This document shows, piece by piece, positions 9,466-10,084 of a stretch of DNA of 64,000 bases. Each line of letters begins with the position of its first letter. Position 1 is the stretch's first letter. Source of the DNA: Escherichia coli. GTDB taxonomy: Bacteria > Pseudomonadota > Gammaproteobacteria > Enterobacterales > Enterobacteriaceae. The stretch lies in assembly GCF_013315695.1 (NCBI RefSeq), contig NZ_CP054353.1; one strand, 5' to 3'. Under the pieces are notes generated by a model. That model saw only the letters and a program-made list of their open reading frames with translations, did not search any database and was not told the origin of the DNA. Position numbers and translations under genes: made by a program.

Positions 9466-10084
9466 ATTTAATGCAGCATCTATCGCCGGATGCGATGCTT
9501 TACTGACCGCTGCCTGAGCCTGTAATAAACTTGTCATTTCCTGATTTTGATATGTTCATTCCAACATCAGAAGAAAGTTAAATTATGGATGACAAACCAT
9601 TGCAGGCTCTGGCTAATGAACTCAAAACACCGGCTCAAGAAAGTCAGCGTAAGGGCTTCTTCCGACTGCAACAGGTGAAGAAAAACCAGCCCCGCATTAC
9701 CTGTATCCCCGTCAACCATCAGGGGCCCCTGCCTGACATCGCCTGAACATATTCCCCCACGCAACCTGCCGCACTGACGTAGCCCACACAATAGGCGTTT
9801 CATCCGCCTGTAGCACCGGATGCATGAGCGATTTCTTATAGTTATTCCTTTGCTTAATAACGATTATTTCCGGGTCGTTCGCTCTCGTATTTTCTTTAAT
9901 ACGTCAGAGCTACCTGGGCCGTAATACAGCATGTACCAGACCCGACACGGCATTTCTGACCAGGGAAAAAGTCAACGATGAGTAGTTATATCAGCGCAAA
10001 TGACGTCCTGTGGCTCCTTTGCGGTGACCACATTCACGTCTCCGGCGCTGCCAGAGGATATTTATTTCAAGGATACGTAGCATT

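Follow-up and report, generated by a model that had tools for sequence, protein, structure and literature searches.

The cvrA-LRR locus and the structure of its spacer

The window analysed here is a stretch of 64,000 nucleotides of the Escherichia coli chromosome, in which emtA, ldcA and cvrA (plus strand) are followed by a spacer, a gene for a leucine-rich-repeat (LRR) protein (plus strand), and then dadX and dadA (minus strand). cvrA (7729-9465) ends with its stop codon one base before the spacer and the LRR ORF starts at 10085, the spacer occupying exactly positions 9466-10084 (619 bp). Identical or near-identical E. coli genomes carry the same limits in their RefSeq annotation. The spacer sequence was 100% identical to that of E. 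coli MS 21-1 and 99.7% identical to that of SMS-3-5.

The initial annotation had described a spacer of about 620 bp without confident coding capacity; its limits proved to be exact, and the ORFs within it were no longer than those in shuffled sequences. The longest complete ORF comprised 78 codons, compared with 69 +/- 20 codons in the shuffles, 30% of which equalled it. Since these lengths are within chance, ORF length alone provides no evidence of coding. Spacer ORFs of 53, 78, 79 and 34 amino acids gave no match in Pfam or NCBIfam. The spacer is very probably a non-coding composite made up of the tail of cvrA (9466-9515), an IS1414-type fossil (9516-9706) and the DNA upstream of the LRR gene (approximately 9707-10084).

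Conservation was assessed in an alignment of 11 alleles of the locus (the window, L001, L006 and L008-L015). Mean pairwise divergence was 2.2% in the 3' end of cvrA, 7.7% in the cvrA flank (9466-9515), 3.1% in the IS leader (9516-9584), 5.0% in an ORF of 53 codons discussed below, 3.4% in 9747-9829, 2.1% in 9830-9977, 2.5% in 9978-10084, and 7.2% in the first 300 nt of the LRR coding sequence. The cvrA flank, the most variable stretch of the spacer, carries on the plus strand a hairpin at about 9475-9499 (AGCAUCUAUC/GAUGCGAUGCU, followed by UUUAC) with a minimum free energy of -13.5 kcal/mol (z=-0.9). Together with the UUUAC, this hairpin weakly resembles a terminator.

The IS1414-type fossil and its 53-codon open reading frame

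IS1414 is a member of the IS256 family with a Mutator-type DDE transposase, and carries the astA/EAST1 toxin gene. The reference used was the intact IS1414 of plasmid pFDN9_1, an element of about 1315 bp bounded by inverted repeats and an 8-bp target duplication. Its left inverted repeat opens GAGCCTGTACATAG..., its transposase starts with the ATG at nt 73 and has 402 amino acids (PF00872 at 1e-118), and astA is embedded from nt 788.

Two blocks of the spacer, both on the plus strand, matched this element. The first (9516-9631), comprising the inverted repeat, the transposase leader, the Shine-Dalgarno sequence GAAAG, the ATG at 9585 and codons 1-16, aligned to IS1414 nt 1-121 with z=40.7 in local alignment; by blastn the left end of IS1414 was 83% identical to the window (E=1e-28). 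From 9516 the window reads GAGCCTGTA-ATAAACT--TGTCATTTCCTGATTTTGATATG, which aligns with the left end of IS1414, GAGCCTGTACATAGATTTGTGTAATTGCCTGATTTTGATATG, and a terminal inverted repeat is thereby recognized. The second block (9648-9706) corresponds to IS1414 nt 322-380, or transposase codons ~84-103 (z=11.8 in local alignment); positions 9669-9701 within it were 85% identical by blastn (E=7e-6). At the protein level (BLASTP, E=1e-5) residues 1-12 of the 53-codon ORF match residues 1-12 of the transposase, and residues 12-39 (ELKTPAQESQRKGFFRLQQVKKNQPRIT) align to transposase residues 77-101 (E=1e-5). Both blocks share one frame, with a net 62 codons missing in frame between them. Based upon these alignments, 9516-9706 is identified as a fossil of an IS1414-type (IS256-family) element.

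The first 107 nt of the fossil matched 1053 plasmid records from more than 10 genera, among them Escherichia, Salmonella, Klebsiella and Shigella, often under features annotated as IS256 or IS1414 transposases. The multi-copy, mobile distribution of an insertion sequence was therefore found in these plasmid records, and again in the K-12 counterpart described below. Within 9700-10084 there was neither further IS homology beyond 9706 nor a right end of the element (alignment z<0). The second inverted repeat and the 8-bp target-site duplication are absent, as is an intact PF00872 transposase, of which codons 1-16 and ~84-103 are left. The right end and the catalytic domain being gone, the fossil cannot move.

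The fossil shares with IS1414 the left inverted repeat, the leader, the start codon and two stretches of the transposase, whereas it keeps 175 aligned nt (a span of 191 nt) of the ~1315 nt, without the right repeat, the duplication, PF00872 or the astA region. Its decay by internal deletion is likewise shared with many E. coli copies of IS1414, among which decayed, deleted copies are reported to be common (PMC12585946). Decayed IS256-family elements are a well-known kind of sequence, to which the left third of the spacer adds a new case that had not been annotated. The architecture of the fossil was common to all LRR-bearing alleles in the 11-allele alignment. Pieces of the window type and of the O157 type were 95-98% identical to one another and 81-89% identical to modern IS1414, so that either an old insertion or a diverged relative is indicated. 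An old IS1414-type element probably inserted just 3' of cvrA, with its transposase gene facing the LRR gene. What survives of it is the left inverted repeat together with the leader and beginning of the transposase gene and a short internal segment, and the 53-codon ORF is the open remainder of the transposase frame.

This ORF lies on the plus strand at 9585-9746 including its stop codon, one base off the span of 9584-9745 assigned to it initially, and it corresponds to the RefSeq/PGAP hypothetical protein WP_000342120/1. It is the open rest of an internally deleted transposase 5' end, begins MDDKPLQA, and fuses transposase codons 1-16 to codons ~84-103. Homologues were found in E. coli only. 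Among the 11 alleles, variable sites fell 6:9:8 on codon positions 1:2:3, compared with 1:1:15 in the adjacent 3' end of cvrA; a CGA to TGA change stops the frame at codon 27 in four of them, and others have a frameshifted or lengthened C-terminus. No sign of purifying selection, either as a third-position bias or as a preserved frame, was found in these alleles, and the substitution pattern indicates that the ORF is free of coding constraint. The flat codon-position counts, the stops, the frameshifts and the natural deletion described below therefore mark it as a neutrally evolving fossil. In some strains PGAP calls minus-strand ORFs across the same DNA; these show no codon bias and are broken by the same indels, and the hypothetical proteins so annotated are chance ORFs.

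The region upstream of the LRR gene

To the right of the fossil lies an indel-prone linker (9707-9829) without detectable IS homology (z<0), and then a conserved, single-copy, non-coding region upstream of the LRR gene (9830-10084, plus strand), which includes a Shine-Dalgarno sequence, AAGGA, at 10069-10073. Positions 9740-10084 occur in one copy per genome, only at the cvrA-LRR locus, in 837 of 5426 genomes. One allele class (L012/H94-H98 and H204-H209) has a natural deletion that begins at 9682, within both the IS fossil and the 53-codon ORF, and ends at about 9811; 9812-10084 is left in place and the LRR gene is intact. Both the single-copy status of the portion 9707-10084 and its pattern of conservation are evident from these genome and allele comparisons.

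Two further indels distinguish the window from other alleles. At 9794/9795 other alleles carry a 29-bp insertion, CGCGTTTCAGACTGCTCAGTAACTGTAGTG, which resembles the following GCGTTTCATCCGCCTGTAG as if by a diverged tandem duplication. At window position 9928 other alleles carry a 19-bp insertion, ACTGATTCAGGTCTGTTAC.

Judging from its conservation, the stretch 9830-10084 most likely holds the LRR promoter, operator sites and 5' leader, and transcription of the LRR gene would start within it. Its low divergence could alternatively reflect a recent recombination tract. In the initial annotation the spacer was either the LRR gene's promoter and leader or coding sequence in decay that had arrived with the insertion, and each of these two readings suits a different part. 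The former fits approximately 9830-10084, which is single-copy, non-coding and about threefold better conserved than the start of the LRR coding sequence. The latter fits 9516-9706, with the qualification that the decayed sequence derives from an IS transposase and did not arrive together with the LRR gene.

A consensus scan of the plus strand of 9830-10084 found no sigma-70 site. The best site in 9750-10084 by position weight matrix was TTCACG-18-GATATT; it scored 6.5 and would encroach on the Shine-Dalgarno sequence. The best promoter-like site of the whole spacer was CTGACC-17-TAAACT at 9503-9531 (score 9.7), at the junction of the flank and the IS, so that the fossil could contribute transcription; the -35 element of this junction site is not conserved between alleles. 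A second promoter-like site, at 9555-9584 (score 8.3), lies within the fossil. No plus-strand terminator was found between cvrA or the fossil and the LRR gene, and because none lies between, weak transcription from cvrA read-through or from the IS fossil may run into the LRR gene.

The 5' regions of ipaH/sspH-type LRR genes are likewise non-coding and lie directly upstream of an LPX-type LRR gene, and, as in ordinary effector-gene 5' regions, the right part of the spacer is better conserved than the polymorphic LRR coding sequence. In contrast to the ipaH/sspH-type regions, this right part has no MxiE box (the Shigella effector promoter motif, which is absent upstream of the LRR gene), no recognizable sigma-70 promoter, and no similarity to plasmids or to other E. 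coli loci. The right part of the spacer is an ordinary upstream region.

A plasmid origin of the locus was considered and rejected. The four matches labelled as plasmids were all non-mobilizable; the one inspected was a chromosomal chunk, and two others were chromosome-sized. A record labelled as a plasmid, NZ_CP031350.1 (p1RM9154-C1, 187 kb; L019), carries ymgE-ycgR-emtA-ldcA-cvrA-spacer-dadX-dadA, which is core chromosomal DNA, and is probably a misassigned or excised chromosomal segment.

Other functions for the spacer were weighed against this assignment. It is unlikely that the IS fossil was domesticated as the LRR promoter, with an old transposase promoter or a hybrid flank/IS promoter feeding a long leader through 9540-10084. 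The two best promoter-like sites do lie in or at the edge of the fossil, no plus-strand terminator separates it from the LRR gene, and intact IS1414 offers a good candidate for an extended -10 promoter (TTGTGT-16-TGaTATGTT, score 8.7), its likely transposase promoter; however, the equivalent of this promoter falls to a score of 5.1 in the window through the loss of 2-3 nt, its -10 has lost a T and reads TATGCA or TATGCT in most other alleles, the hybrid site has a variable -35, and the fossil region is less conserved than 9830-10084. Less probable still is that the 53-codon ORF is a real small-protein gene, or a translated leader (uORF) modulating the LRR gene. Its ATG is preceded by a sequence resembling a Shine-Dalgarno sequence (GAAAG in the window, GAAGG in other alleles), its first 26 codons are open in all 11 alleles, PGAP calls it as a CDS, and the equivalent start cassette of modern IS1414 heads the annotated start of K-12 YmgM, a protein detected by SPA-tag immunoblot (PMC6001520). 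Yet the ORF is demonstrably a transposase fossil without third-position bias, with the codon-27 stops, the frameshifted C-termini and the natural deletion from codon 33 onward; its Shine-Dalgarno sequence is weakened in the window, and the 338 nt to the LRR start are too far for translational coupling. That the spacer encodes a small regulatory RNA, as had initially been suggested, is very improbable. A long intergenic region (619 bp) with a well-conserved block of 255 nt would accommodate one, but no Rfam match was obtained at E<=1 for either strand of 9000-12000, folding was unexceptional (z=-1.6, with 12 of 200 shuffles folding as well), no plus-strand terminator was found, and neither strand has a promoter/terminator pair, the cvrA hairpin excepted. 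The conserved upstream region thus stands as the preferred reading of the right part of the spacer.

YmgM and the loss of the LRR gene

The LRR gene (10085-11521, plus strand) encodes 478 amino acids with LPX-type repeats like those of SlrP, SspH2 and IpaH, without the ubiquitin-ligase domain, and is highly polymorphic. It was seen only in E. coli/Shigella; the sole contig returned by a scan of one genome per species came from a metagenome-assembled genome (MAG) under the label Collinsella, and it resembles a further E. coli allele. The gene was present in 834 of the 5426 complete genomes searched (about 15%).

Several features of the gene itself were observed. In its first 300 nt (10085-10384) the variable sites of the 11 alleles fell 16:17:16 by codon position, yet the ORF is open, and the protein alleles range from 74% to 98% identity, which suggests diversifying selection or relaxed constraint on an effector-like protein. 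A lysine/glutamate-rich stretch at 10410-10553 has a 12-nt period, and 11173-11367, encoding acidic L-E/D-x repeats near the C-terminus, has a 9-nt period. These internal periodic stretches and the variation in allele length (437 to 480 amino acids) point to repeat expansion and contraction. A metagenome-derived protein of 444 amino acids (P0081) combines a PF00999 cation/H+ exchanger domain, as in cvrA, with an LRR domain. Such a protein implies that in some strain the spacer was crossed by a deletion that put cvrA and the LRR gene into one reading frame.

Three classes of genome without the LRR gene were distinguished. The K-12-type scar, found in about 61% of genomes, retains the last 74 nt of the LRR gene. 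In the O157:H7 scar the fossil is kept as far as 9579 and LRR sequence resumes at 11406, with an IS3-family element at the junction; this scar marks an IS-associated deletion independent of that in K-12. The third class is a clean deletion of 9500-11682. In O157:H7 FRIK2069 (L007:2480-3960) the ends of the IS3-family element abut window positions 9579 and 11406, with no target duplication. Since remnants of the LRR gene are kept in genomes that lack it, the LRR-less states are deletions and the LRR-bearing state is the older one. The "insertion" assumed at the outset, of an LRR gene into a K-12-like backbone, therefore probably has the direction reversed, as judged from these K-12-type and O157:H7 remnants.

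A second ORF touches the spacer on the minus strand. The ORF at 9337-9537 (66 amino acids) has its first 24 codons in the spacer and then runs antisense to the last 129 nt of cvrA. It matched Pfam PF23693 (YmgM) with 150.7 bits (cut-off 27) and E=1.5e-44 over profile positions 6-67 of 67, and was 95% identical to K-12 YmgM across residues 5-66 (YmgM residues 6-67). The frame starts MTSLL, from an ATG that is located within the IS inverted repeat and directly adjoins AGGA, and leaves profile positions 1-5 without a match; the K-12-type start, with an IS-derived ribosome-binding site, ATG and the N-terminus MDDKQ, is not present in the ORF of the window. RefSeq/PGAP annotates it as a partial minus-strand pseudogene at 9400-9537. 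By simple arithmetic, synonymous third-position changes in cvrA land on first codon positions of the YmgM-like frame, and the conservation of that frame is therefore a by-product of cvrA. At five loci (L005, L007, L008, L009 and L013) PGAP calls the YmgM-like CDS and then flags cvrA as a pseudogene 'missing C-terminus'; the flag, at the equivalent of approximately 9400-9465, looks like an annotation artefact of the overlap, the cvrA frame appearing intact in the alignment.

The initial annotation had found no recognizable ORF in the spacer. Both short ORFs do show homology to conserved families, the finding that it had named as speaking against it: the 53-codon ORF and its surrounding DNA to the left end of IS1414 and the start of its transposase, and the minus-strand ORF to YmgM. 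Neither resembles a gene under selection.

K-12 YmgM, a protein of 67 amino acids, is the only form whose production has been shown, by chromosomal SPA tagging and immunoblotting (VanOrsdel et al., PMC6001520). Its region (L003:343-614) corresponds to window 9337-9526 with an inverted IS end added: K-12 follows the window collinearly to about 9526, continues with a piece equivalent to window 9516-9614 in inverted orientation, and resumes at window 11448. This modern IS1414 end of approximately 100 bp supplies the ribosome-binding site, the ATG and the first eight codons of YmgM (MDDKQLQA), as well as a putative promoter with an IS-derived extended -10, TGATATGTT. It has been joined to the cvrA 3' end on the antisense strand and adjoins the last 74 nt of the deleted LRR gene. 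Among the 5426 complete E. coli genomes the piece was multi-copy, occurring on chromosomes and plasmids at as many as 25 places in one genome, its copies being 93-99% identical and lying under features annotated as 'IS256 family transposase' or 'IS1414 family transposase'. It was 99% identical to a chromosomal IS256-family copy beside yafV and 84-88% identical to pieces of the window type.

K-12 YmgM thus looks, from the composition of its sequence, like a chimeric and recently born ORF that joins an IS1414 translation start to antisense cvrA, and the Pfam YmgM family owes its conservation largely to that of cvrA. No description of YmgM as such a chimera was found in the literature searched. 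K-12 YmgM and the YmgM-like ORF of the window share the same position, antisense to the cvrA 3' end, whereas the cassette that heads YmgM in K-12 has its older counterpart in the window pointing the other way, at the head of the 53-codon ORF.

The simplest model for K-12 would be an insertion followed by a deletion. A second, modern IS would have inserted at 11447/11448 in the opposite orientation, and a deletion would then have occurred between the old inverted-repeat tip (GAGCCTGTAA) and its internal reverse-complement copy in the new IS (GAGCCTGCAA), which would then be oriented as direct repeats. None of the 5426 complete genomes contained a full IS beside window 11448; IS-only matches reached 82% coverage, none of them spanning the junction. 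An invertible switch, by which a start cassette of about 100 bp points toward the LRR gene here and toward cvrA in K-12, there driving ymgM, would also account for the inverted position of window 9516-9614 at the same flank, and a short inverted repeat, GAGCCTG(T/C)AA, is present at both ends of the cassette. It is extremely improbable, since this repeat is internal to IS1414 (the inverted-repeat tip against codons 5-8), the K-12 piece belongs to the modern IS lineage (99% identity, compared with 84-88% to pieces of the window type), every inverted form observed was accompanied by the LRR deletion, the 5426 genomes contain no intermediate, and no recombinase gene lies near the cvrA-LRR locus. 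Insertion and deletion remain the simplest model for K-12. A more speculative suggestion, and one we hold to be rather doubtful, is that the left end of IS1414 is a portable expression cassette reused at the cvrA locus: its fusion in K-12 would have created YmgM, while in the window the fossil may remain transcribed and translated (26-53 codons) and may supply transcription to the LRR gene.

As regards annotation, what RefSeq lists as the hypothetical protein WP_000342120/1, and likewise its variants, is an IS-transposase fossil. The origin of YmgM bears on the birth of small proteins and on the weight due to a Pfam family built on antisense ORFs. At least three lineages have lost the LRR gene independently, with IS elements at two of the three scars (K-12-type and O157:H7). 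For work on this effector-like gene, the 255 nt at 9830-10084 are the starting point.
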